Below are positions 5,732-38,873 of a DNA stretch of 38,873 nt, one piece after another. This stretch comes from a virus (taxonomy: Duplodnaviria > Heunggongvirae > Uroviricota > Caudoviricetes). The stretch lies in the IMG/VR virus record IMGVR_UViG_2734482567_000007; one strand, written 5' to 3'. The notes beneath the pieces are model-generated. The model ran no database searches. It was not told where the DNA came from and saw nothing but the letters and a program-made list of their open reading frames with translations. The first letter of the stretch is position 1; each line of letters opens with the position of its first letter. The translations under genes were made by a program, and so were the position numbers.

Positions 5732-6262
5732 ATGGCTAAACGCGTTACAAAATTAAAGGCCGCAGCCGAGGCGGCACCGCAGACCCGGGAAGAAGTCAGC
5801 CGTGATATCCGCACCCTGGGAGATATTCAGCGAGAGGCGCTGCGCCTGGAAACGGCGATGAATGACGAAGTGGCAGAAATCACCGCCCGTTATACGCCGC
5901 AGATTGAAAATCTTAAAAAGCAAATCAAAGTGCTTTTTAAAGGGATTCAGGACTGGTGCAAAACCAACCGTGATGAGCTGACGAACGGCGGCAAAACCAA
6001 AACAGCCAATCTGACCACCGGAACGGTGTCATGGCGGCTGGGAACGCCATCATGCAGCGTCAGCCGTGATGTGGAAGGTGTGATTGAAATGCTGCGCCGT
6101 ATGGGGCTTGAGCGTTTCATCCGCACGAAAGAGGAAGTGAACAAGGAAGCCGTCCTGGCGGAGCCGGATGCTGTGAAAGGCATTGCCGGTATCAAGGTGA
6201 ATAAAGGCGCTGAAAGTTTTTATGTCGAGCCTTTTGAACAGGACGCCGGACTGAATAAATAA
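5732..6262 (+). CDS. gam: Gam host-nuclease inhibitor (Mu Gam family)
   Basis: 176 aa; strong resemblance to Mu Gam along the length (RLE...EITA..., CKTNRDELTNGGKTKTANLTTGTVSWR, ERFIRTKEEVNKEA). Confidence 0.85.
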   Translation: MAKRVTKLKAAAEAAPQTREEVSRDIRTLGDIQREALRLETAMNDEVAEITARYTPQIENLKKQIKVLFKGIQDWCKTNRDELTNGGKTKTANLTTGTVSWRLGTPSCSVSRDVEGVIEMLRRMGLERFIRTKEEVNKEAVLAEPDAVKGIAGIKVNKGAESFYVEPFEQDAGLNK

Positions 6263-6407
6263 CACCGCATTAATCAATTAAATATCACTTCATTTTAATT
6301 ATGGCGCTCGCGTCAGGGGACTGCTTGCGCCTGAAAACAGAAAATAAGGGTTAAGAAATATGAAATACGTTTATATCGTCATTAATAATGTGGTGGGGAA
6401 ATAAATC

Positions 6408-6941
6408 ATGATTGATGCAAAAGTGCTTGAAGGGGTTAAAAACTGGCTGTGTATTTATGGCCGCCTGACCTGCGGTGTACTGGCTGAAAAAATGAATATG
6501 CCGCCATCCTCCATGGTTTATTTTCTGCGTGATGCGGTTGATGCAGGCGTGCTGACGGAATGTAACGGTTTTTATGATATTCCGCGTCCCCGCCCGGTGC
6601 AGCCGGTTCGTCGCAAATGCAGCCAGGAATCTGCGGCTGATGATGTTCAGTGGTGCGGCTTCAGAAAATCCCTGCCATGGATTGAGGGGCATGATATTCC
6701 GTCGATGGCGTGGGAATTTGCTCAGGGCGTTCTGACCTGTGAAACCGTTTATGTGGTGGCTGAAGTTGATGAGCAGGCCATGAAAGAAGGCGTGCCCCAG
6801 TTTGTGATGGCGTATATCGACATACGCCTGGGCGTCATTATCTGCGGTTTAAGCGGCTGGAATATCACTGAACATGTTCTGCGCTACCTGATTGTTGACC
6901 GGACAGCAGCGCCTGCCGGGATATCTGCGGAGGTGGCGTAA
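6408..6941 (+). CDS. Hypothetical early accessory protein
   Basis: 177 aa ORF after 145-bp intergenic gap; no recognisable motif. Confidence 0.4.
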   Translation: MIDAKVLEGVKNWLCIYGRLTCGVLAEKMNMPPSSMVYFLRDAVDAGVLTECNGFYDIPRPRPVQPVRRKCSQESAADDVQWCGFRKSLPWIEGHDIPSMAWEFAQGVLTCETVYVVAEVDEQAMKEGVPQFVMAYIDIRLGVIICGLSGWNITEHVLRYLIVDRTAAPAGISAEVA

Positions 6942-7456
6942 TGTTCTTTAAAACATCAAACCCTTCCGCGCTGGCTGCGTGGCAAAAATACCAGCAGGAC
7001 TGCCAGAAAGTTAAGGATGAGGCAAAACGCCTTGAGGCCGTGCTGAATGTTGCGTGCCGGTCGGTATTTGTATCCGGTATCAGTGGATTTTACTTTAAGG
7101 GACTGCGTTTTACGGAGGACAAATATCCTTTTCATCGCGACTTATGGCGAAAACCGACTGCGTCGAATGGCTGGAGCTGCACACCGCGCACATCACGTAT
7201 CCCTAAAACCCTGCGTGTTGCCTCTGATGAACTGAACAGTCTGTGGCGTGAATATTCGCCCGTCACGTATGCCAGAACCGATGCGCTGTTGTTCTGGTTG
7301 GGTATTGATTTCTCGGCAATCCTGTTTGGCCCTGTGAAGTGGTTCTGCGTTGACGATGTGATTTACCTTCAGTGCGGCGTAAAACCCGCAAAACAGAAAA
7401 TGACCGAAATACTGTCTGATGAGTTTTATGCTGCTGAAAAGCGAGTCAGGGGGTGA
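6941..7456 (+). CDS. Hypothetical early accessory protein
   Basis: 171 aa ORF, start overlaps previous stop. Confidence 0.4.
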   Translation: MFFKTSNPSALAAWQKYQQDCQKVKDEAKRLEAVLNVACRSVFVSGISGFYFKGLRFTEDKYPFHRDLWRKPTASNGWSCTPRTSRIPKTLRVASDELNSLWREYSPVTYARTDALLFWLGIDFSAILFGPVKWFCVDDVIYLQCGVKPAKQKMTEILSDEFYAAEKRVRG

Positions 7457-7459
7457 TGC

Positions 7460-8011
7460 ATGATGAAATTACAACCCATGGGACTAAAAGGTCGCGCCCC
7501 CGCTCATGTCCGTCCGTGGACACCTGAAGAAGATGCGCTGCTGATTGCGCTTTATTCATCCACCCCGGTTAAGGATATTGCTGCCAGAATAAAAAGAACT
7601 GTCTGGGCTGTATATAACCGGACTGGTGTATTGCGCAGTTCATACCCGGAGTTACTGAAATATAAACACCCAAGATTTACACCTGATGAAGATAAGTTTA
7701 TTCGAAAAAATGCCAGAACAATGACCTGCCAGCAAATGGGAGAATATCTCGGACGTAATAAAGATTCTGTCAGATGTCGGGCAGGAATGATTGGTGCTGG
7801 ATTAACAAAGTGCGGAGAGTTACGCCCCGGCACGCGCATATCTGATGATGATGTACGTCTTATACGTGAGCTGCGTGATTCCGATTACCCACGCCGTCTG
7901 TCATTCCGGGAAATTGGCGAAAAGTTTGGAATATCTGAACATTCTGCTCACGCAGTTTATTACCGTCGCCGGACTGCCGAGGACGCTGTATTACGGGAGT
8001 TAACGCCATGA
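7460..8011 (+). CDS. Putative DNA-binding protein with Myb/SANT-like repeats
   Basis: 183 aa; repeated W/F-TP-[ED]ED motifs (WTPEEDALLIALY, FTPDEDKFIRKNA) and C-terminal HTH-like segment; locally AT-rich. Confidence 0.4.
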   Translation: MMKLQPMGLKGRAPAHVRPWTPEEDALLIALYSSTPVKDIAARIKRTVWAVYNRTGVLRSSYPELLKYKHPRFTPDEDKFIRKNARTMTCQQMGEYLGRNKDSVRCRAGMIGAGLTKCGELRPGTRISDDDVRLIRELRDSDYPRRLSFREIGEKFGISEHSAHAVYYRRRTAEDAVLRELTP

Positions 8012-8340
8012 TAACGACCTTATTTGTTGAATCAGATGAACCTCTTGTGTGTGCCGCCGGAATGCCGCTCTGTGGCGGAACGCTGACCGGCGTTTATTTC
8101 GGGGATTTGCGCGGTTATCCCTGGCATTCACTGGATGACGCATTTCCGCCTGATATGGAGGCTGTCGTGCTGATTGTTCAGTATGGTGACCAACAGGAAC
8201 TGCGCATCGGCCATATGGGGTATGAAGGCTTTTTTATTGATGAAGAAACCGGAGCCTGCCTTGAAGATGAGGACGGACAGGTGACGCACTGGTGCCATCT
8301 TTCGGCCTTGCCGGAATTACAGGGGATACATAATGGATGA
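8008..8340 (+). CDS. Hypothetical early accessory protein
   Basis: 110 aa ORF overlapping previous stop. Confidence 0.35.
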   Translation: MITTLFVESDEPLVCAAGMPLCGGTLTGVYFGDLRGYPWHSLDDAFPPDMEAVVLIVQYGDQQELRIGHMGYEGFFIDEETGACLEDEDGQVTHWCHLSALPELQGIHNG

Positions 8341-8476
8341 GCAAATTGTTGAATGTCCCACCTGTGGAAATGAGGACCCGGAGTATCTGAAAGAGTGCCC
8401 ACATTGTGGTGAGATAAAATGTAACCACTGCGATATGGGCGACGACACTGCATGTATAAATTGTGAGGATGAATAA
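8333..8476 (+). CDS. 47-aa C4 zinc-ribbon protein (not in supplied ORF track)
   Basis: ATG at 8333; MDEQIVECPTCGNEDPEYLKECPHCGEIKCNHCDMGDDTACINCEDE with CxxC pairs; tight packing with neighbours. Confidence 0.4.
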   Translation: MDEQIVECPTCGNEDPEYLKECPHCGEIKCNHCDMGDDTACINCEDE

Positions 8477-8477
8477 T

Positions 8478-8765
8478 ATGGAAAAAGAAATCAAATTTGC
8501 GCCTAAATCTATCGACGAAGAACTGGCTAAAATCGGCATGCTTGAACGTATGCGGGACATTATCGAATATGCGATAAAAGAAAATCTTGCAGCCAGAGAA
8601 GCCCTTTTGATAATGGAGCGGGAGATTAACCTGATTAAGGATGCTGTATCTCTGGATAATAAAATAGCCCGCGAGGAATACGTTCGCCGTAGGCTCGGTG
8701 TTGATGGTTCAGCAATTCTTACATCTGAACATTATGCAAAAATTTTTAATCTTTTTCAGCGGTAA
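8478..8765 (+). CDS. Hypothetical protein (AT-rich)
   Basis: ATG at 8478 with GAGGA 8 nt upstream; 95 aa; AT-rich codon usage unlike phage core. Confidence 0.4.
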   Translation: MEKEIKFAPKSIDEELAKIGMLERMRDIIEYAIKENLAAREALLIMEREINLIKDAVSLDNKIAREEYVRRRLGVDGSAILTSEHYAKIFNLFQR

Positions 8766-8985
8766 TCCCCATACAGGCCCGGAGATTGTCGAAATGCCAG
8801 TCGGTATTAATATATGAGCCATCCTGGATATCTTCTGCATTTTCCGGGGTAGAGTTTTTTTGAGCGAGATTGATAATATGTATTGCCTCCTCACGGGAAA
8901 TCAGCCCCTTATCGAACAGGGTTACCATAAGATTTCCAGCCATTGTGAATGCGGCAACATCAAGTGCATTTTTTATATCTGACAT
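8746..8985 (-). CDS. Hypothetical protein encoded antisense to the early operon
   Basis: 79 aa; strong RBS AAAAGGAAAAATCT before ATG; convergent with and overlapping 3' end of previous gene; AT-rich. Confidence 0.45.
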   Translation of the reverse strand: MSDIKNALDVAAFTMAGNLMVTLFDKGLISREEAIHIINLAQKNSTPENAEDIQDGSYINTDWHFDNLRACMGITAEKD

Positions 8986-9013
8986 AGATTTTTCCTTTTA
9001 TGTTAATTGACAT

Positions 9014-9041
9014 GGCGGTGCGGTAACACCGCCCATTTTTT
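9014..9041 (+). terminator. Intrinsic terminator-like hairpin upstream of gemA
   Basis: GGCGGTG-CGGTAA-CACCGCC perfect 7-bp stem followed by ATTTTTTAT. Confidence 0.5.
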
Positions 9042-9055
9042 ATGGAGCCACGATA

Positions 9056-9568
9056 ATGAATCGCGCTTCCCTGATTACCTTAATACATGTCGCAAAACGC
9101 GATCTACAGCTTGACCATGATACCTATACATCCGCGCTGCTGGCAGCCACCGGCAAATCCAGTTGCCGTGATATGTCACCCGGTGAGTTATCCCGCGTGC
9201 TGGATGTTTTCAAAAAACGCGGTTTTAAAGTGCGTCAGAAGCCGGTTAACCGGGCCTTAAAACCGGGTACGGTGACCGCCAAAATTCGCGCCATCTGGAA
9301 AGTGATGCACCGGCAGGGATTTATCTCTGATGGCGGGGAAACGGCCCTTAACCGCTGGGTGAAATCGCAGACGGCCGCGCAGAACGACGGCGAAGGTGTG
9401 GCTAACTGGCAGTGGCTGGAGCAACAACCCGCGCTGGCCTCTGATGTGCTGGAGCGTCTCAAACGCTGGCACCGCCGCAAAATGCTGGCAGCCCTGGATA
9501 TGTCGGAACGTGCAGTGATGAGTTATGAGCGTGTTTGCAGGCTGTATGAAAAATCATTCCCCCGTTAA
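9056..9568 (+). CDS. gemA: GemA-like early regulatory protein (Mu gp16 family)
   Basis: 170 aa; position immediately before early terminator and activator gene as in Mu; sequence character matches GemA family. Confidence 0.6.
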   Translation: MNRASLITLIHVAKRDLQLDHDTYTSALLAATGKSSCRDMSPGELSRVLDVFKKRGFKVRQKPVNRALKPGTVTAKIRAIWKVMHRQGFISDGGETALNRWVKSQTAAQNDGEGVANWQWLEQQPALASDVLERLKRWHRRKMLAALDMSERAVMSYERVCRLYEKSFPR

Positions 9569-9572
9569 CCCC

Positions 9573-9604
9573 AAATCCCGCCACAGCGCGGGATTTTTAT
9601 TTTA
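9573..9604 (+). terminator. Intrinsic terminator at end of early operon
   Basis: AAATCCCGC-CACAGC-GCGGGATTT hairpin followed by TTATTTT, 5 bp after gemA stop. Confidence 0.7.
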
Positions 9605-9638
9605 AACTTGCCCTGTGTAATGATGACCGGAGGCGGGT

Positions 9639-10061
9639 ATGGCTGAAACACAGATGAGCATGTTTGGTGACAGCGAACAGCTGCACGCGCTGATTGACCG
9701 TCTGGATGATATTCCTGATGATGAGCTGAAAAAGAACTGGCCCGGCACGCTGCGGGACCTGGTTGATGTGATCAGTGCTGAACTGCACCGTCAGGGGATT
9801 GAACCTGCTCAGGCGGGAATGCTTGCCCGTAAGGTTGCAGCCGCACAGGCCGGGTACATGGGCGGGCGTGGTTATTATCTCCCGGTCGGTGAATCCCTTT
9901 TCACCGAACTGCGCAATAATGAAATTTTTTCCCGCTGGAGCCAGGGCGAAAAAATTGAAACCCTGCGCCGCCACTACCAGATGTCAGAGACGCAGATTTA
10001 CTCCGTTATCCGCAACCAGCGTCGCCTGCATCAGGAACGCACGCAGCCACGGCTTTTCTGA
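9639..10061 (+). CDS. Mor/C-family transcriptional activator (middle/late gene activator)
   Basis: 140 aa; GGAGG RBS; position between early terminator and lysis genes; C-terminal HTH-like region typical of Mor/C family. Confidence 0.65.
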   Translation: MAETQMSMFGDSEQLHALIDRLDDIPDDELKKNWPGTLRDLVDVISAELHRQGIEPAQAGMLARKVAAAQAGYMGGRGYYLPVGESLFTELRNNEIFSRWSQGEKIETLRRHYQMSETQIYSVIRNQRRLHQERTQPRLF

Positions 10062-10132
10062 TATTCCGCAAATCCTGCCCCCTTTTCCTCACGGTTACGC
10101 TGACTCAGAGAACACCATGAGACAGCGTAACA

Positions 10133-10633
10133 ATGCCAAAACTCCCCGCACCCCTGCGTAAAAAGCTGATTGCCCTTGTTCTGGCCGGAGCCGGGACGTT
10201 CACCATTGCCACGCACTACACCGGCTACTGGGAAGGGAAAGAAAACACCACGTACATTGATCCCACCGGCACCCCCACCATCTGTTACGGCCATACCGGC
10301 CCGGATGTGAAACCGGGGATGACAAAAACTGATGAAGAGTGTCTGGAGCTGCTGGAAAAGGACATGAAATGGGCCTTTGCGGCTATCGATCGTCATGTTC
10401 AGGTGCCGCTTACCCGTGGTCAGACGGTGGCGCTGGCCTCCTGGATTTTCTGGGCCGGTGAAACGAACTTTCGCAACTCCACGCTCCTGCGCCTTATCAA
10501 TGCCGGGCAGATGCCCGCGTCCTGTAAGCAGTATATCCGCTGGATTTATTCAAAGGGGGTAAAACTCCCCGGTCTTGAGGCCCGCCGTTCGGCGGATGAA
10601 TGGTTATGTCGTTACGATTTGCCGAAAGTCTGA
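10133..10633 (+). CDS. lys: SAR endolysin (T4-type lysozyme fold)
   Basis: 166 aa; N-terminal Gly/Ala-rich weakly hydrophobic segment (LIALVLAGAGTFTIAT) then E-x8-D-x5-T catalytic spacing (WEGKENTTYIDPTGTPT). Confidence 0.75.
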   Translation: MPKLPAPLRKKLIALVLAGAGTFTIATHYTGYWEGKENTTYIDPTGTPTICYGHTGPDVKPGMTKTDEECLELLEKDMKWAFAAIDRHVQVPLTRGQTVALASWIFWAGETNFRNSTLLRLINAGQMPASCKQYIRWIYSKGVKLPGLEARRSADEWLCRYDLPKV

Positions 10634-17522: not shown

Positions 17523-17607
17523 CGGTCAGTGGCGGGGGTCGAACCCGCATACATGATCCACCCGGAGGCAGGCACCGACTTTACCAGTTAAGCGTACACT
17601 GACCGCC
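17523..17607 (-). other. Structured tRNA-like element (T-arm plus acceptor-like stem), not a canonical tRNA
   Basis: Minus strand shows GTCAGTG...CACTGAC 7-8 bp terminal helix enclosing GCGGG-TTCGACC-CCCGC T-arm-like hairpin; no acceptable anticodon arm found. Confidence 0.3.
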
Positions 17608-30075: not shown

Positions 30076-31157
30076 TGCCTTATCAGCCTTTACCGCTGGC
30101 ACAGTTAATCACGCAGACACAGCAGGATATCAGCCAGCGCCTGCCCGGCTCGCAGCCGGGTGTGAATGAAACCACCCTGAATGCCATTGCTTACGCTCAG
30201 GCAGGGTTATCTGCTCAGGAGCATGAGCATCTGGCCTGGATTGCGCGTCAGATCATCCCGACCGAAGCCGATGAAGCCGAACTGCTGAAACACTGTGCAT
30301 TCTGGGGCGTCATGCGTAAGCCTGCCTCTCGGGGGGACGGGCCGGTTCAGCTGATGCTGACCACGGATGCGGGGATCAAGGAAGGTGTGCTTCTCCAGCG
30401 AAGTGATGGCGTGGTTTACCGTATCACCACCTCCCTGACCGGTAAGGCCGGTACGCTGAATGTCAGTGTGGAAGCCGAAAGTGCCGGTCGTGCGGGGAAT
30501 GCCCCGGCAGGGACAAAACTGACATTTATCACACCGCAGGCGGGGATCAACCAGACGGCCACGGTGACCGGAACGGGGATCACCGGTGGTGCGGATGTGG
30601 AAACCGTGCCGGAGCTGCTTTCCCGTCTGGTTTTCCGGGTGCAGAATCCACCGTCCGGCGGCACGCAGTATGATTTTGAACGCTGGGCGCGTGAAGTGCC
30701 GGGCGTGACGCGGGCATGGTGCCGCCCGGAATGGCCGCAGGCGGGCAGCGTGGGGGTAACGTTTGTTCAGGATAATAACCCGGATATTTTCCCCGGTGAC
30801 GGTGATGTTCAGCGGGTGGCGGATTATATCCGCAGTCATGATGATCCGGCGACCGGCCAGCCTGTCGGACAGCCTCTGGGGCCGACGGTGACCGTGTTTA
30901 AACTGACCAATAAGCCGGTGCCCTTCAGCATCAGGATCATCCCGAAAACACCGGAGAATCAGGCGGCCGTAAAACAGGCGCTGACCGACCTGTTGTATAA
31001 CGAATCCCGGCCCGGCGGTCTGGTTCTGCCGTCGTCTTTCTGGCGGGCGGTGGCAGGGGTGAAAAATCTGGAGGATTTTGAAGTGCGCAGTCCGCTGACG
31101 TCAGTTCAGGCGGGAGACAGTGAGCTGCTGACGGTAGGAGAAATCACATGGCTGTAA
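30075..31157 (+). CDS. Baseplate J-like protein
   Basis: 360 aa; position; overlapping start. Confidence 0.65.
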   Translation: MPYQPLPLAQLITQTQQDISQRLPGSQPGVNETTLNAIAYAQAGLSAQEHEHLAWIARQIIPTEADEAELLKHCAFWGVMRKPASRGDGPVQLMLTTDAGIKEGVLLQRSDGVVYRITTSLTGKAGTLNVSVEAESAGRAGNAPAGTKLTFITPQAGINQTATVTGTGITGGADVETVPELLSRLVFRVQNPPSGGTQYDFERWAREVPGVTRAWCRPEWPQAGSVGVTFVQDNNPDIFPGDGDVQRVADYIRSHDDPATGQPVGQPLGPTVTVFKLTNKPVPFSIRIIPKTPENQAAVKQALTDLLYNESRPGGLVLPSSFWRAVAGVKNLEDFEVRSPLTSVQAGDSELLTVGEITWL

Positions 31158-31708
31158 CCCTGACCCCGCATCAGCGCGCCCTGTTGCAGTTACTGCCTGA
31201 CGGGCTGGCATGGGACAAGCGTCCGTCATCCGTACTGGCATCATTATGTCTGGGCCTCAGTCATTCGACAGCGCGTGTATCCTGGACGGGTAAACAGCTG
31301 CTTGCCGAGCGTTTCCCTGACACGTCGCGCCTGCTGCTGGAAGACTGGGAGCGTTATCTCGGGCTTCCCGAGTGTGATATGGCCGGAGCCACCCTCACGG
31401 AGCGACAGCGTTATGCCGGAAATAAATACCGGATGAAGCCCTCGCTGAACCGTGAATTTTATATCCGGTTTGCGGCGGAGTTTGGTTATCAGATTGACAT
31501 TCAGCCCTCACCGGATTCGCAGTGGGTCAGTATTGTCACGATTAACAGTGAAACCGGCTACCGGAATATGAATGTGCTGGATGATATTCTCACGCCGCTG
31601 CGTATTTATGAAGGCGGTGCGCTGGAATGTATTCTGAACCGTTATAAGCCTGCATGGCAGACGTTTATTTACGTTTATGCAAACAGCCATGAAGAGGAGA
31701 CTATTTAA
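31148..31708 (+). CDS. Baseplate/tail-fibre-adaptor protein (Mu gp48-like)
   Basis: 186 aa; immediately upstream of fibre gene. Confidence 0.55.
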   Translation: MAVTLTPHQRALLQLLPDGLAWDKRPSSVLASLCLGLSHSTARVSWTGKQLLAERFPDTSRLLLEDWERYLGLPECDMAGATLTERQRYAGNKYRMKPSLNREFYIRFAAEFGYQIDIQPSPDSQWVSIVTINSETGYRNMNVLDDILTPLRIYEGGALECILNRYKPAWQTFIYVYANSHEEETI

Positions 31709-32153
31709 TGTTTCATGTTGATAATAATTCCGGCGTGGCGAATATGCCTGCGCTGGCACCGGCGCAGAGTAATACCACCACCTGGTTTACCGAAGGTGAC
31801 GGACAAAAAGGTATCAGCTGGATTGGTCAGGACTGGCTGAATATTCTCCAGGCCGAACTGCTGAATATTCTGGCTGAAGCCAGTATTCAGCCGGATAAGG
31901 CGCAGTTAAACCAGCTTACGCTGTCCATTAAAGCCATTATCGCTGCGAATGCCTTTTCCCGGAAAAATAACCTGAAAGAAATTGCTGATGCCGGTGCGGA
32001 GGCCCAGCGTCTGGCCCGTGGTTATCTTGGTCTGGGGACGCTTGCCACAAAAAACAGTCTTGGTCCCGCTGACGTTAATGCCCTGGCGAAGGATCAGAAT
32101 CTCGCCGACCTGGAGAATAAGGGAACCGCCCGTAATAATCTGGATGTTTACAG
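31708..32153 (+). CDS. Tail-fibre protein, N-terminal constant part (3' truncated by N gap)
   Basis: ORF runs into the N run; N-terminus typical of Mu/P2-type fibre anchor region. Confidence 0.65.
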
Positions 32154-32403
32154 NNNNNNNNNNNNNNNNNNNNNNNNNNNNNNNNNNNNNNNNNNNNNNN
32201 NNNNNNNNNNNNNNNNNNNNNNNNNNNNNNNNNNNNNNNNNNNNNNNNNNNNNNNNNNNNNNNNNNNNNNNNNNNNNNNNNNNNNNNNNNNNNNNNNNNN
32301 NNNNNNNNNNNNNNNNNNNNNNNNNNNNNNNNNNNNNNNNNNNNNNNNNNNNNNNNNNNNNNNNNNNNNNNNNNNNNNNNNNNNNNNNNNNNNNNNNNNN
32401 NNN
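32154..32403. other. Assembly gap (250 N)
   Basis: Uninterrupted run of N. Confidence 0.99.
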
Positions 32404-32427
32404 GGCTGTCTATAGCGCGGCGATTTT

Positions 32428-32493
32428 TTTGATACCGATTTGCATTTCATTTGATACCGCTGAAAAACGCCGATACGCAACTTATTTGATACT
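32428..32493 (+). repeat. Right-end transposase-binding-type repeats (TTTGATACCG at 32428-32437 and 32450-32459, TTTGATACT at 32485-32493)
   Basis: Same motif as at left end, immediately downstream of mom stop on the minus strand and abutting the N gap. Confidence 0.6.
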
Positions 32494-32538
32494 AAATCGG
32501 CGCTTTTCTTTTGAGTTTTAGAATGAGTTTTTAAGCGT

Positions 32539-33276
32539 TCATTCACTCTCTTTCAAACCAGTTTTAACTGTTTGTGGTTTTGGGTAAGGCTGGACTTTGA
32601 ATAGCTTTGTGTTAAGGCGTTTTCTGGCTCTCTTGTCCAGAAACCGGATGTAACGAAACTGACGGAATTTATGAACACTGGCTCTGTCGATATTAGCCCG
32701 CAGATGTTCACCTCGCTGTCCTCCTCGTTTGATTGCATTCTTGCAAATCTCGTGATACCACTCGCCATCAAGTTCATAGAATGTTGTTTCATGACTGCCT
32801 ACATAATCAAAATTGCTTGCCTGGTACACGACACCAAGACAGCCACAACGCTCATCTGCAAACGACTGAACCCACTGCACCTGCGGATAAAGTTGTCTGA
32901 TTAGTTTGAGCGCGTAACTGATTGCCCTTGATTCGGAGTTTCTCGGCATACAGTCATGCAGCCATAACCGGTTAAGCTCCATATATTCGCGGTTCTGCGT
33001 GCCAGTTACGACGCGTGCACCATTGTTTGGATTAAGGGCATAACCCCATTGCATTACGCCAACCAGCTCCCGTTCTGAAAATATGCCCAGATGAAGGTAG
33101 GAATTATTTACGAAACGATGGCTGTAATGTTTATTGACGACGACCAGCCGGGCCAGCCAGCAACTTATTGTCTCAACCCGTAACTCACGGGAGCCATAAC
33201 CGACGATATTGTCGTTATAGTGAATAAGTTCAGGCGTGCTGATGATACGGGATGTAACTTGCTTTCTGTTCCCCAC
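32539..33276 (-). CDS. mom: Mom-like DNA modification protein; start inferred as GTG at 33276 inside 3' end of com
   Basis: Last gene before the phage end, immediately downstream of and overlapping a Com-like zinc-finger gene; mom frame has no ATG near com stop; GTG at 33276 preceded by AAGGA (9-nt spacing). Confidence 0.55.
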
Positions 33277-34147: not shown

Positions 34148-34402
34148 TTACATCATGGTACTGTCAGTTCCGGGCTGAGCCGGGTCTGGTTGCTCTGGCT
34201 GCGCGTCGGTTTTCGGCTCATTATCAGCATCACTGGCCGCAACTGCTGGCCCAATAAGTTTTGCCAGCACTTCATCAACGTAAGTGTCGATTTGTGCCTC
34301 AAAATCCTTGCGGACCTGCGCTTTCAGCAACTTATTTACTTCACCGGAATACAGTGCCTGTTTTACCAGGTCTTCAGTGACGGTGCCTTTAATTTCTGGC
34401 AT
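34148..34402 (-). CDS. Hypothetical acidic protein
   Basis: 84 aa; strong RBS AGGAGG 6 nt before ATG; Asp/Glu/Pro-rich C-terminus. Confidence 0.5.
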   Translation of the reverse strand: MPEIKGTVTEDLVKQALYSGEVNKLLKAQVRKDFEAQIDTYVDEVLAKLIGPAVAASDADNEPKTDAQPEQPDPAQPGTDSTMM

Positions 34403-34437
34403 GTATATCCTCCTTATGCGGGAATAAAGCCCTGCAA

Positions 34438-34620
34438 TCAGGGCTGGGTCGGGTCTTTTGGGAGCGGAGTTACCTGCGCTGTTTTACTGAGTTTTTCAGC
34501 TGCTGCGTCCTCAATTTTGCGGCGAACATAATTTCTGATGGCCTTATAACCACCACTCACCAGATATAACGCACATACTGCCGTGCAGAAATACAATAAA
34601 ATAAGCTGTAAAAATGTCAT
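34438..34620 (-). CDS. 60-aa single-transmembrane peptide (candidate small membrane toxin or lysis/exclusion peptide)
   Basis: ATG at 34620 preceded by GGGAGGG; N-terminal hydrophobic helix MTFLQLILLYFCTAVCALYLVSGGY followed by basic/charged tail. Confidence 0.45.
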   Translation of the reverse strand: MTFLQLILLYFCTAVCALYLVSGGYKAIRNYVRRKIEDAAAEKLSKTAQVTPLPKDPTQP

Positions 34621-34635
34621 TATCCCTCCCAATTA

Positions 34636-34758
34636 TTGACATGGTGTTGACACCGGTAATATCTGTTAGGTAAAAAGGTGCACTGCATTTTTTGCTTTGG
34701 ATATAACGATCTTTTTGCCGCCGGTTTCTTGTTTTCCCTTACCGGCGGCATTTTTTTA
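34636..34758 (+). ncRNA. Candidate small RNA transcription unit antisense to the leader of the 60-aa peptide gene
   Basis: TTGACA (34636-34641), 15-bp spacer, TAATAT (34657-34662), then intrinsic terminator GCCGCCGGT...ACCGGCGGC + TTTTTTT (34717-34757); no plus-strand protein gene to serve. Confidence 0.35.
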
Positions 34759-34764
34759 TCCTGC

Positions 34765-36819
34765 TTACGCGTTATTCACTTCCACCACGATACTGTCAAT
34801 CAGTACCGGGTAAGTCGCATTTTTAGTGATATCGGTCACGCGCAACTTGTCTGCCGTAAACGTGCCGACCGGAGACTGCGACAGCATGAATGGTGTCCCG
34901 TCCTTACCATCAATGACCGGCGTCACCTCAATACTGTTGTTACCGGCAAAACGGAAGCCCAGCGTATGCCATTCGTTATTAAATGCGCCGAATGACCCCA
35001 GCTTCGTGTTCTGCGCCGTGTTTCCTTTGTGATACATCACGTTAAGGTCTGTGGCATCGCTCTGTACGTAGAACGATGCCAGCAGGTTATGACCGGCATT
35101 TCCTTCCAGAGTAACCCCTTGCGGCAGGGCAGAAACCGGCCAGTACAGCGCCAGTGCGTACTGATTAGCCGTAAGCGCGCCATCGAGTTTAAAACGACAA
35201 CTGACAAGACCACCTTTACCCAGCAGGTCCGCACCATTACCAGCATCATGCTCAAGGTACCAGGGGGCTCTTCCTGTTTCCTTGGTCAGTTTCATTGCCT
35301 TACCCCCGCTGGCTCCGGCATCATCCACGATTTGAGCCTTGCCACCTCCGGCAGCCCAACCCTGTGGTGTCAACCGTCCTTCAGACTCAGATGCCCGGTA
35401 AGCAAATAGCGTACTCATCGTCGTGGTGTCTGCGGGTGGCGTGGACGGTTTTGATGGTGTATCAGGTGACGGCTTCTCATCCGGTGGTGTCACGGTCTGC
35501 CCACGCATCAGTTCAGCCGTGCGCCCTGCATGGAGCATAATAGCTGAGGCCAGACGGTCTGAAATGACGCCCCTGCGTGCCCATGAGCTGAAATGGCTGT
35601 CACGCTGTGTCGAAACAAAACTGCCCTGGGTTCGGGATGCTGCACCGTAATACCCGACAGCCACAATATCCGGGTCTTCCGCCGGAGCATTCGTTGGCGT
35701 GCTCTGTCCATTCTCATCCGTCAGGAACGGTACAAAGAAAATTTTCTGTGCTTCCTTGCCTTTGTAGCCACCGTATACTGCCTCATATTTATCGGTGCCA
35801 GCGTTTTTCCAGTAATACGTGGTATCACCGCAAATCCACGGCACCGTGGTGGCATTTCCACTCACGCACTGCGCAGCAAGCGGAGCCAGGTCAGTTCTGA
35901 ACTGCTGAACCATGGCCGTGAATAAACTATTATGCTGCTGGCTTCCTGAGGCAAGGTCTGCCTCTCCCTGCATCCAGACCACAGCCAGAAGTTTGTTTTT
36001 CGGGTTTTTCGCCAGCGCGACTTTGGTGCGGCTTACCAGGTCCTGATACAGAGGTTTACCGGCCCCCCAGCGTGAAGAATCAGCGGAAGCACCGCTGGCC
36101 TCACTGAATGAGCCGTCGGCTCCAGTGGTGAATGCTGACCCGCCACGACAACAGGGCACCAGAAGTATCCCGGCATTCTGTGGGATATAGGGAAGCAGTT
36201 TTTTGGCAATATGCAACCCCTGACCGACAGTCCCGTACTGGCCTTTTGCCAGATCAGCTTTCGGGTGGTTTATCCCGCTCATATCCTGAACATCATGCAG
36301 GCAGTGGTCTGCCGGAATGATGTCGTTGTATGTACACGACGTACCGTTGGGCGTTACCGTACTGCGGCGTGCCAGTTGCTTAATGCGTGGGTCCGGGCGG
36401 TCAAACGAATCCGGTAACGGCAGCCCCTCGCCGTAGGCCATGCCATTTGACTGACCCGCGAGAATGACAACAAAGTAATATTCCGGCTCTGAACTGCTGC
36501 CATTCGTGCTACCGGAAGGCCCGGCGTTATCCGGTGCATTCCAGTCGGAGGGCGTGAGCGTTCCGGCCACGTCAGATGTGATTGGAATGATGCCAGTCAC
36601 GCCTGAACTGGTGATTTCTGCACTGGGATTACCGGATACCGGCATTACCCATAATGGCTCTTTCGTGCTGAAGCGGATCACGCAGTCTGCGAAGGTGATC
36701 CCCCCTTTATTACCCGAAGGGCGGAAAGGGCTTTCAATAAATGCCACCGTGCCACCGGCAACCTTGACTGAAAACTCTCCGGGCATGGCGGAGAGCATTT
36801 TCCACTTGGAGTCTGACAT
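34765..36819 (-). CDS. SGNH/sialate-O-acetylesterase-like carbohydrate esterase with C-terminal lectin-like domain (NanS-p-like)
   Basis: 684 aa; YYFVVILAGQSNGMAYGEG esterase motif; Pro/Ser/Thr-rich linker; C-terminal beta-rich domain; inserted between gin and com. Confidence 0.5.
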   Translation of the reverse strand: MSDSKWKMLSAMPGEFSVKVAGGTVAFIESPFRPSGNKGGITFADCVIRFSTKEPLWVMPVSGNPSAEITSSGVTGIIPITSDVAGTLTPSDWNAPDNAGPSGSTNGSSSEPEYYFVVILAGQSNGMAYGEGLPLPDSFDRPDPRIKQLARRSTVTPNGTSCTYNDIIPADHCLHDVQDMSGINHPKADLAKGQYGTVGQGLHIAKKLLPYIPQNAGILLVPCCRGGSAFTTGADGSFSEASGASADSSRWGAGKPLYQDLVSRTKVALAKNPKNKLLAVVWMQGEADLASGSQQHNSLFTAMVQQFRTDLAPLAAQCVSGNATTVPWICGDTTYYWKNAGTDKYEAVYGGYKGKEAQKIFFVPFLTDENGQSTPTNAPAEDPDIVAVGYYGAASRTQGSFVSTQRDSHFSSWARRGVISDRLASAIMLHAGRTAELMRGQTVTPPDEKPSPDTPSKPSTPPADTTTMSTLFAYRASESEGRLTPQGWAAGGGKAQIVDDAGASGGKAMKLTKETGRAPWYLEHDAGNGADLLGKGGLVSCRFKLDGALTANQYALALYWPVSALPQGVTLEGNAGHNLLASFYVQSDATDLNVMYHKGNTAQNTKLGSFGAFNNEWHTLGFRFAGNNSIEVTPVIDGKDGTPFMLSQSPVGTFTADKLRVTDITKNATYPVLIDSIVVEVNNA

Positions 36820-38511: not shown

Positions 38512-38873
38512 TTATAACTGAGATACCGTAATCCATGTACCTCCGACTAATTTTTGCAGGGGTCTGAATGCTATAAAATCGTTTGAAGCATCAACTTTAC
38601 TGTCAATCTGCAGGCCTGCCATAACATTACCGTACGCAGAGTAATATGCCCCACCGTACATTACCTGCCTGTTCTCTGCTCCCAGCCTGATATCCTGGAT
38701 ATATCGGGAATCCGCATCCTGCTGTGTTATACCAGAAGTGATGTTTATGTCCTGCGTCCCGTCAAAGGGAACCCCATTAATATTTCTTGGGGTGGCGAGT
38801 CTATTCGCGGCAACGGCGGTGCCGTCCGATGGCAGAGCATTCGCCGCCCTGTTTACCGTTTCCCGTAAACCGA
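38512..38873 (-). CDS. Tail-fibre variable C-terminal cassette (5' truncated at window edge / gix site)
   Basis: Open frame from window end to TAA at 38512-38514; begins with IR-encoded ...NRAANALPSDGTAVAAN then variable region; followed by assembly gene. Confidence 0.6.
   Translation of the reverse strand, partial: GLRETVNRAANALPSDGTAVAANRLATPRNINGVPFDGTQDINITSGITQQDADSRYIQDIRLGAENRQVMYGGAYYSAYGNVMAGLQIDSKVDASNDFIAFRPLQKLVGGTWITVSQL
38804..38873 (-). repeat. Right inverted repeat of invertible segment, ending in right gix half-site (38860-38873)
   Basis: Reverse complement matches 37555-37624; TTCCCGTAAACC + GA at the very end of the window is the right half and centre of a gix site. Confidence 0.8.

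Follow-up and report, generated by a model that had tools for sequence, protein, structure and literature searches.

A three-unit Myb/GcrA-type helix-turn-helix protein and a Mu gp13 ortholog in the early operon of a Mu-type Escherichia coli prophage

The 38,873-nucleotide (nt) stretch of DNA analysed here (IMG/VR record IMGVR_UViG_2734482567_000007; hereafter the window) is a complete Mu-type prophage of Escherichia coli strain 600029, inserted in sgrR. Its early operon carries, at 7460-8011, a gene for a Myb-like protein of 183 amino acids (aa), which consists of three tandem 53-residue tri-helical helix-turn-helix (HTH) units; the first two units (R1 and R2) belong to the Myb/GcrA type, whereas the third (R3) comes closer to the HTH of AsnC or sigma-70 region 4. 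Two genes downstream, a 47-aa open reading frame (ORF) at 8333-8476 is, as judged from its sequence, a real gene missed by annotation and the ortholog of Mu gp13. We consider it probable that the Myb-like protein binds DNA in an allele-specific way and acts as an accessory regulator of the early operon, and that the gp13 ortholog is an acidic zinc protein. An earlier note, made from the letters of this stretch, had pointed to a Myb/SANT-like repeat protein and a CxxC protein here, and both ORFs are indeed present at the coordinates it gave. The Myb assignment of the 183-aa protein is already made in RefSeq, where WP_000977059.1 is named 'SANT/Myb-like DNA-binding domain-containing protein', and in PHROGs. 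Added here are the identification of gp13, the link to Mu gp9 and the swapping of predicted recognition helices between alleles.

The 183-aa protein and its repeats are arranged as follows, with helices taken from the AlphaFold2 (AF2) model.

7460-8011, + strand: 183-aa Myb-like protein with three tandem Myb/GcrA-type HTH units (RefSeq WP_000977059.1; PHROG 323)
7511-7642, + strand: repeat R1, aa 18-61, motif WTPEED; helices aa 22-32, 37-43 and 48-59; aligned by profile to c-Myb R2
7670-7798, + strand: repeat R2, aa 71-113, motif FTPDED; helices aa 75-84, 90-97 and 101-110
7829-7969, + strand: repeat R3, aa 124-170, an HTH of the AsnC / sigma-70 region 4 kind; helices aa 129-140, 149-156 and 160-169

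The AF2 model of the protein, with a predicted local distance difference test score (pLDDT) of 84.6, revealed a disordered N-terminus (aa 1-13), three 3-helix units and a last helix at aa 173-181. Three-helix bundles with an HTH in tandem, by which the SANT-Myb superfamily is recognized, are therefore present. The motifs W20-TPEED, F73-TPDED and I126-SDDD are spaced by exactly 53 codons, and the DNA motif CTGA[AT]GA[AT]GAT recurs at 7524, 7683 and 7842. Except for this 159-bp-spaced codon motif, which encodes the protein repeat, no iteron- or operator-like repeats were found inside the Myb gene. As the self-alignment signal among R1, R2 and R3 is weak (z 2.3-2.8), the repeats had to be shown by profile and structure. 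The W/F-TP-[ED]ED Myb/SANT repeats described in the earlier note are borne out by both, with the W20 and F73 motifs seen in the sequence. The C-terminal HTH-like segment that it had also reported corresponds to the third 3-helix unit of the model and to sub-threshold HTH matches in the C-terminal third, namely HTH_AsnC-type at aa 130-164 (18.8 bits against a 27-bit cutoff) and HTH_10 at aa 142-164. The protein has a mass of 21 kDa and is basic, with an isoelectric point (pI) of 9.88 and a net charge of +12.

Profile searches place the protein in a defined family. It matches PHROG 323 ('transcriptional regulator, D5-like') with E = 5.3e-53, aa 2-182 aligning to profile positions 80-256. In a family alignment of 22 full-length homologs from E. 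coli and Salmonella, sharing 43-74% identity, Pfam Myb was detected at E < 0.01 in 17 members (best 6e-9), and sigma-70 region 4-like matches were also found among relatives. Comparison of the family profile with solved structures yielded c-Myb R2R3 (E = 1.2e-6, positions 18-106), B-Myb (1e-4) and Cbp1 (5e-4), with R2-R3 of c-Myb in register with R1-R2 of the family profile. A single-sequence search of PDB sequences with the 183-aa protein was uninformative, an NCBIfam scan gave nothing useful for the 183-aa and 47-aa proteins, and the PADLOC defence models had no match at E <= 0.1 to the five proteins encoded in 7460-8985.

Two other family assignments were rejected. Close relatives are named as AsnC/Lrp family members by the Prokaryotic Genome Annotation Pipeline (PGAP), but the all-helical AF2 model is without the alpha/beta RAM domain and the HTH_AsnC match is sub-threshold; the label 'AsnC family protein' on these relatives is misleading. 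As for the GcrA family (PF07750), no Pfam GcrA match was found in the 183-aa protein or in 21 close relatives, and the GcrA C-terminal region is missing; the likeness is one of fold, for a single repeat alone.

The full profile search returned 12,863 relatives at E <= 1e-3, 161 of them at E <= 1e-30. Many are 300-1,500 aa long and carry 5-9 tandem R1-R2 units with the consensus WTxEEDxxLxxxYxxxxxxEIAxxLGRSxxAVxxRAxxLGL, and one is fused to a helicase. These multi-repeat relatives pass the Pfam Myb cutoff (40-140 bits, with 140 in P0040), and one of them passes the GcrA model. The Myb/GcrA-type repeat is a general DNA-reading module in phages, where Myb-type HTH transcription factors have been noted earlier (PMC7824862).

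The gene is a stable component of its prophage lineage. Among 5,426 complete E. coli genomes, a gp11-gp12 probe hit 232 genomes (274 places) and a Myb-gene probe hit 232 genomes (275 places), and the Myb-like gene after gp12 is universal in this E. coli lineage. Salmonella Mu-like prophages show the same order of gp11, gp12 and the Myb gene, followed by a 108-aa ORF. The reading frame is intact and under purifying selection, with a ratio of nonsynonymous to synonymous substitution rates (dN/dS) of 0.23-0.29. The earlier note had called such a protein unusual for a Mu-like early region; this view is contradicted by its retention after gp12 across the lineage and in Salmonella, and by Mu gp9, which belongs to the same PHROG. 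Conservation and synteny in related prophages, which the note had proposed as a check, are seen for the Myb gene after gp12, and the 47-aa ORF is intact in a relative. The description of the gene as locally AT-rich stands in direction, with a GC content of 47.3% against 51% for the early region, but the difference is marginal and the gp13-gp15 block is lower still (40-44%).

Homologs occur outside the Mu-type prophages as well. One that is 37-44% identical lies in the early operon of P2-like phages, just upstream of replication gene A. In Salmonella P2-like prophages (L007-L009, 4752-6564), a Dam-type (MethyltransfD12) methyltransferase is encoded two genes upstream of the Myb-like homolog, whose stop codon overlaps the replication gene A start. 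The nearby Dam-type methyltransferase, together with the GcrA-like fold, hints at a possible methylation link. In Mycobacterium phage Bombitas, genes 109-110 (L015 1004-2887) encode a split C5 cytosine methylase, with Pfam positions 2-172 and 273-322 on the two parts. The Myb-like repeats of gene 109 lie in the stretch between the methylase parts, which sister phages annotate as HNH endonuclease, and the split looks like an invasion by a homing endonuclease. Since the repeats lie in the insertion that splits the methylase gene, the methylation link in mycobacteriophages is incidental.

Compared with sister prophages, the Myb gene is divergent in the following segment.

About 7600-7977, + strand: divergent allelic segment from helix 3 of R1 to helix 3 of R3, 63-77% identical to sister prophages, no indels

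The genes gam, gp11 and gp12 share 95-96% DNA identity with the sister prophages (synonymous substitution rate dS 0.14-0.22), and the 110-aa ORF that follows the Myb gene shares 93%. The Myb gene itself shows 78-79% DNA and 71-73% protein identity, with a dS of 0.57-0.70, and the divergence is restricted to its interior. The amino-acid changes between alleles concentrate in helix 3 of each unit, where 18 of 32 positions differ, compared with 5 of the 56 that make up helices 1 and 2 (Fisher p = 2e-6); elsewhere the count is 31 of 138 (p = 3e-4). The same pattern was found family-wide, with an entropy of 1.70 bits for helix 3 and 0.89 bits for helices 1 and 2 (p = 6e-5). Strain SW070917 carries the allele of the window at 99-100% identity, with flanks of just about 95% identity and O157-type genes downstream. 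Because the same allele is found there in diverged flanks, the allelic segment moves by recombination. By these alignments, the Myb gene is a swapped allele, and the predicted recognition helices form the most variable part of the family. The segment was also considered as the target of a diversity-generating retroelement, which was rejected, as no second copy of 7591-7980 is present in the window and the changes comprise all substitution types, at 29, 31 and 57 for the three codon positions. Its substitution spectrum is that of ordinary diverged coding DNA.

The proposed role of the Myb-like protein builds on its fold, family, operon position, conservation and selection pattern. The protein would be made from the early transcript and would bind double-stranded DNA in the manner of c-Myb R2R3 and the bipartite Tc3/Pax domains, each unit inserting its helix 3 into the next major groove along the duplex. 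It may then serve as a non-essential accessory regulator or architectural factor in lytic development. The exchange of a helix-3 cassette between near-identical prophages implies allele-specific targets, which would be set by the recognition helices exchanged. In addition, the basic charge of the protein fits DNA binding better than the role of a protein-binding SANT domain. A stronger version, in which the three recognition helices are an exchangeable specificity cassette, so that alleles reading different DNA targets move between near-identical Mu-like prophages, is rather doubtful. If it were true, the Myb-like protein would not be a generic regulator but would determine a property of its lineage, such as selective control of host genes or interference among related transposable phages; the acidic 110-aa protein and gp13 might then modulate it.

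Several observations weigh against the proposed roles of the two proteins. The Pfam Myb_DNA-binding model (PF00249) matches only aa 19-33 of the 183-aa protein (19.7 bits, E = 9.5e-4), under the 24.4-bit gathering cutoff. In the Myb tryptophan triad, just the first position is aromatic (W20 and F73; R3 has I126), the second and third being aliphatic or polar. Foldseek with the whole chain gives weak PDB matches (best E = 0.06), and the viral structural neighbours are numerous and all uncharacterised. The three-prophage comparison yielded no early-region segment or cis site that co-varies with the Myb allele: the immunity region of the window prophage differs from both comparators, and tail genes give weak co-variation that resembles unrelated mosaicism. 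Exposed helices may also vary because constraint is relaxed or because they form a protein interface. In our literature searches, no experimentally defined function turned up for Mu gp9, Mu gp13 or the 170-190-aa Myb-like family. As for the 47-aa protein, its AF2 model is poor (pLDDT 58), and its fold and metal stoichiometry are read from the cysteine pattern alone.

One alternative takes the Myb-like protein as a SANT-type protein adaptor, whose variable helices are the interface with a host or phage partner such as an RNA polymerase sigma factor, a nucleoid protein or the transpososome. GcrA, which is the best structural match of the 183-aa protein (for a single repeat), acts jointly with sigma-70, and relatives show the sigma-70 region 4-like matches mentioned above. 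The lack of a DNA target in the three-prophage comparison agrees with such a role, as do the two very acidic small proteins encoded directly downstream, which could be partners. However, protein-binding SANT domains are typically acidic, whereas the 183-aa protein is strongly basic (pI 9.9, net +12), and its family profile is in register with the DNA-binding R2R3 of c-Myb. In HNH endonucleases and helicases, too, the repeat forms the non-catalytic part, which is expected to target DNA. We therefore regard the adaptor as unlikely. Less likely again is that the Myb gene descends from a homing endonuclease or some other selfish element, of which just the DNA-targeting module is left on its own, kept by linkage and with no phage role. 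The 183-aa protein and Mu gp9 have weak PHROG matches to HNH and other endonuclease families, endonucleases are among the BFVD structural neighbours of the 183-aa protein, the mycobacteriophage repeats lie in an insertion annotated as HNH endonuclease, and the interior of the Myb gene behaves as a mobile mosaic segment. A remnant kept by linkage would, however, hardly show a fixed place directly after gp12 across E. coli and Salmonella Mu-like prophages, in 232 of 232 lineage genomes, with an intact frame and a dN/dS of about 0.25. The protein lacks a catalytic domain, its gene is coupled in translation to the rest of the early operon, and Mu retains a two-repeat paralog, gp9. Accessory DNA-binding regulation of the early operon thus remains the reading that we prefer for the Myb-like protein.

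The second gene of interest is the small cysteine-rich ORF.

8333-8476, + strand: 47-aa acidic protein with four CxxC pairs, ortholog of Mu gp13 (Mup13/E14), phrog_5584; not in RefSeq

This ORF has no RefSeq/PGAP annotation in the genome of the window and in one relative, yet it is intact in both, the DNA of the relative being 89% identical. A tblastn search against phage genomes matched Mu, D108, SfMu and Yersinia Mu-like phages with 88% identity over residues 7-47, the match falling on Mup13 (E14). In blastp the protein matches Mu gp13 with E = 6e-26, and both proteins match phrog_5584 (E = 3e-26 for the 47-aa protein). Codon comparison with Mu gp13 revealed 15 synonymous and 5 nonsynonymous changes, with 17 of 22 nucleotide differences at position 3 and a DNA identity of 82.5%, the mark of translation and of strong purifying selection. 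Within the block, no other protein is as well conserved relative to Mu. All eight cysteines (C8, 11, 22, 25, 30, 33, 41 and 44) are kept relative to Mu gp13; in 11 aligned homologs the last six never vary and 10 have the first CxxC pair, the exception being P0036, probably an erroneous sequence. The homologs are 47, 60 or 70 aa long, with the variation confined to an N-terminal extension. The profile match, the eight-cysteine core and the place upstream of gp14 are those of the Mu gp13 family (PHROG 5584).

The earlier note was thus right in taking this unannotated CxxC protein as real and as fitting the operon packing, given its 8-nt overlap with the preceding ORF, a Shine-Dalgarno sequence (AGGGGA) at 8321-8326 and a gp14 start codon 1 nt past its stop. 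Its statement that neither protein has an obvious Mu counterpart fails for the 47-aa ORF, which corresponds to Mu gp13 at 88% identity. For the 183-aa ORF it is correct in that Mu has nothing at the same position, but Mu gp9 is a member of the family. The possibility that the 47-aa ORF is open by chance and rightly left out of the annotation, as its very short length, the missing PGAP call in two genomes and the low-confidence AF2 model might suggest, is effectively refuted by the identity to annotated Mu gp13 with synonymous-biased codon changes, the phrog_5584 match, the conserved cysteines (six invariant, the first pair in 10 of 11 homologs), the good Shine-Dalgarno sequence with coupled start and stop codons, and the intact frame in the relative with 89% DNA identity.

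The cysteine motifs of the protein are CPTCG and CPHCG, which are rubredoxin-type CPxCG knuckles, followed by CNHC and CINC. The rubredoxin-type nature of the first two knuckles accounts for sub-threshold Pfam zinc-ribbon matches, the best being Zn_ribbon_LapB (16.8 against 25.7 bits). Most likely, the eight cysteines hold two zinc ions. With a pI of 4.05 and a net charge of -12 the protein is very acidic, and for this reason it more probably contacts protein than DNA. The acidity of the 110-aa and 47-aa proteins is the composition expected of protein-binding or DNA-mimic proteins, and family evidence for such a role is lacking.

The genes around the Myb gene and the gp13 ortholog are as follows.

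6941-7456, + strand: Mu gp12 homolog, 171 aa, 55% identity to Mu gp12; phrog_2314, E = 1e-84
8008-8340, + strand: 110-aa protein, pI 4.05, net charge -17, phrog_6925; 79% identity to the Salmonella counterpart
8478-8765, + strand: Mu gp14 homolog, 95 aa from the ATG at 8478, 49% identity to Mu gp14; phrog_6075; RefSeq coding sequence
8746-8985, - strand: 79-aa gene at the Mu gp15 position; phrog_32893, E = 1e-45

Relatives of the gp12 homolog are labelled 'Mu-Gp12 family protein' or carry PF26885. The 183-aa and 110-aa genes are two additional, tightly packed early-operon genes between the gp12 and gp13 homologs. The stop of the gp12 homolog lies 3 nt upstream of the Myb-gene ATG at 7460, and the stop of the 183-aa ORF overlaps the start of the 110-aa ORF in the sequence ATGA (8008-8011). 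In the Mu-like prophages of E. coli and Salmonella, the 110-aa gene and the Myb gene are conserved together. In 6200-10200, sigma-70-type promoter signals are not above chance (4 seen against 5.9 expected), indicating that the 183-aa, 110-aa and 47-aa genes are part of the early operon rather than independent morons. The 79-aa protein is at most a distant homolog of Mu gp15, as the match of gp15 to phrog_32893 is weak (E = 6e-4). Identities to the Mu counterparts in blastp are 68% for gp11, 55% for gp12, 49% for gp14, 46% for GemA and 28% for Mor. The genes 3' of the Myb gene are mosaic, with gp13-14-15 in some prophages, as here, and an unrelated set in O157-type prophages. Two good terminator-like hairpins with T-runs were seen on the + strand at 9014-9033, between the gp15-like gene and gemA, and at 9573-9596, between gemA and mor; the overall count of terminator-like sites is not above chance.

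Over 7300-8800 the sequence matches the chromosome of E. coli strain 600029 (NZ_CM128582.1) with 100% identity, and RefSeq annotates SgrR pseudogene halves on both sides of the prophage (1-160 and 38700-38873). RefSeq annotation together with Pfam and PHROG scans gave a gene content of repressor, ner-like gene, transposase A, B, Gam and homologs of gp11, gp12, GemA (gp16) and Mor, as well as lysis, head and tail genes, a Gin-like recombinase, Com and Mom. The immunity region (201-1400, with repressor, operator and ner-like gene) does not align to the sister prophages L013 and L014, which points to a different immunity type in the window prophage; the transposase and the remaining early region are 95-99% identical. 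In the late part, RefSeq lists a 'tRNA-OTHER' at 17524-17603 on the - strand, between the head-morphogenesis and virion-morphogenesis genes, and the same feature is found in L014 at 30406-30490; ARAGORN detected no tRNA or tmRNA anywhere in the window. An AT-rich island at 32001-32400, with a GC content of 0.21 against about 0.55 around it, lies in the 3' part of a 'phage tail protein' gene (31708-32589) and adjoins the tail-fibre assembly gene and the Gin-like recombinase. Between this recombinase and com/mom, at 34291-36345, a 684-aa DUF6645 protein is followed by small DUF1378 and DUF826 genes. This segment also occurs in the O157:H7 prophage L013 and looks like cargo; to our knowledge it has no Mu counterpart.

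No new kind of system is revealed by these results. PGAP systematically overlooks the 47-aa form of gp13, a conserved Mu gene. In addition, Mu gp9, itself uncharacterised, now has a place in a very large family of Myb/GcrA-type HTH repeats from bacteria and phages with about 12,900 profile matches, from which HNH endonucleases and helicases also draw their DNA-reading module. Two natural alleles in otherwise near-identical prophages, represented by WP_000977059.1 for the window type and WP_000973021.1 for the O157 type, provide a testable handle on function, in the semi-essential early region of Mu-type phages, which is still poorly understood.

Among known systems, Sulfolobus Cbp1, which binds CRISPR repeats (PDB 2LVS; NCBIfam NF040595), is likewise a small protein made solely of linkers and three tandem imperfect HTH repeats. 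It is the top Foldseek match of the 183-aa protein (probability 0.96), and Mu gp9 weakly matches its NCBIfam model; but Cbp1 is archaeal and all scores are far under the family cutoffs, making this an architectural analogy and not family membership. The N-terminal domain of Caulobacter GcrA (PDB 5YIU; PF07750) has one HTH unit compared with three in the 183-aa protein. c-Myb and B-Myb R2R3 (PF00249; PDB 1H88 and 1A5J) belong to eukaryotic transcription factors, whereas the 183-aa family is bacterial and phage-borne and has an extra third HTH unit that is not Myb-like. Mu gp13 is 60 aa long with a 19-residue extension, whereas the protein in the window has 47 aa and starts with MDEQIV; their 41-residue cysteine-rich cores are 88% identical and both genes lie immediately upstream of gp14. 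The N-termini differ because the two-gene insertion abuts the 5' end of the gene in the window. The closest relation in Mu itself to the 183-aa protein is gp9 (Mup09, formerly E8), which matches the same PHROG 323 with E = 5e-29 at positions 142-244, the R2-R3 part of the profile; its homolog is absent from the gp9 position of the window prophage. In blastp, aa 5-96 of gp9 align to aa 66-168 (R2 and R3) of the 183-aa protein with 27% identity, the N-terminal half of gp9 resembling R2 (z = 8.4) and the C-terminal half R3 (z = 6.6). Both proteins are basic and both come from the Mu-type early accessory region, but gp9 has two repeats in 99 aa and is encoded upstream of gam, whereas the 183-aa protein has three repeats and is encoded after gp12.

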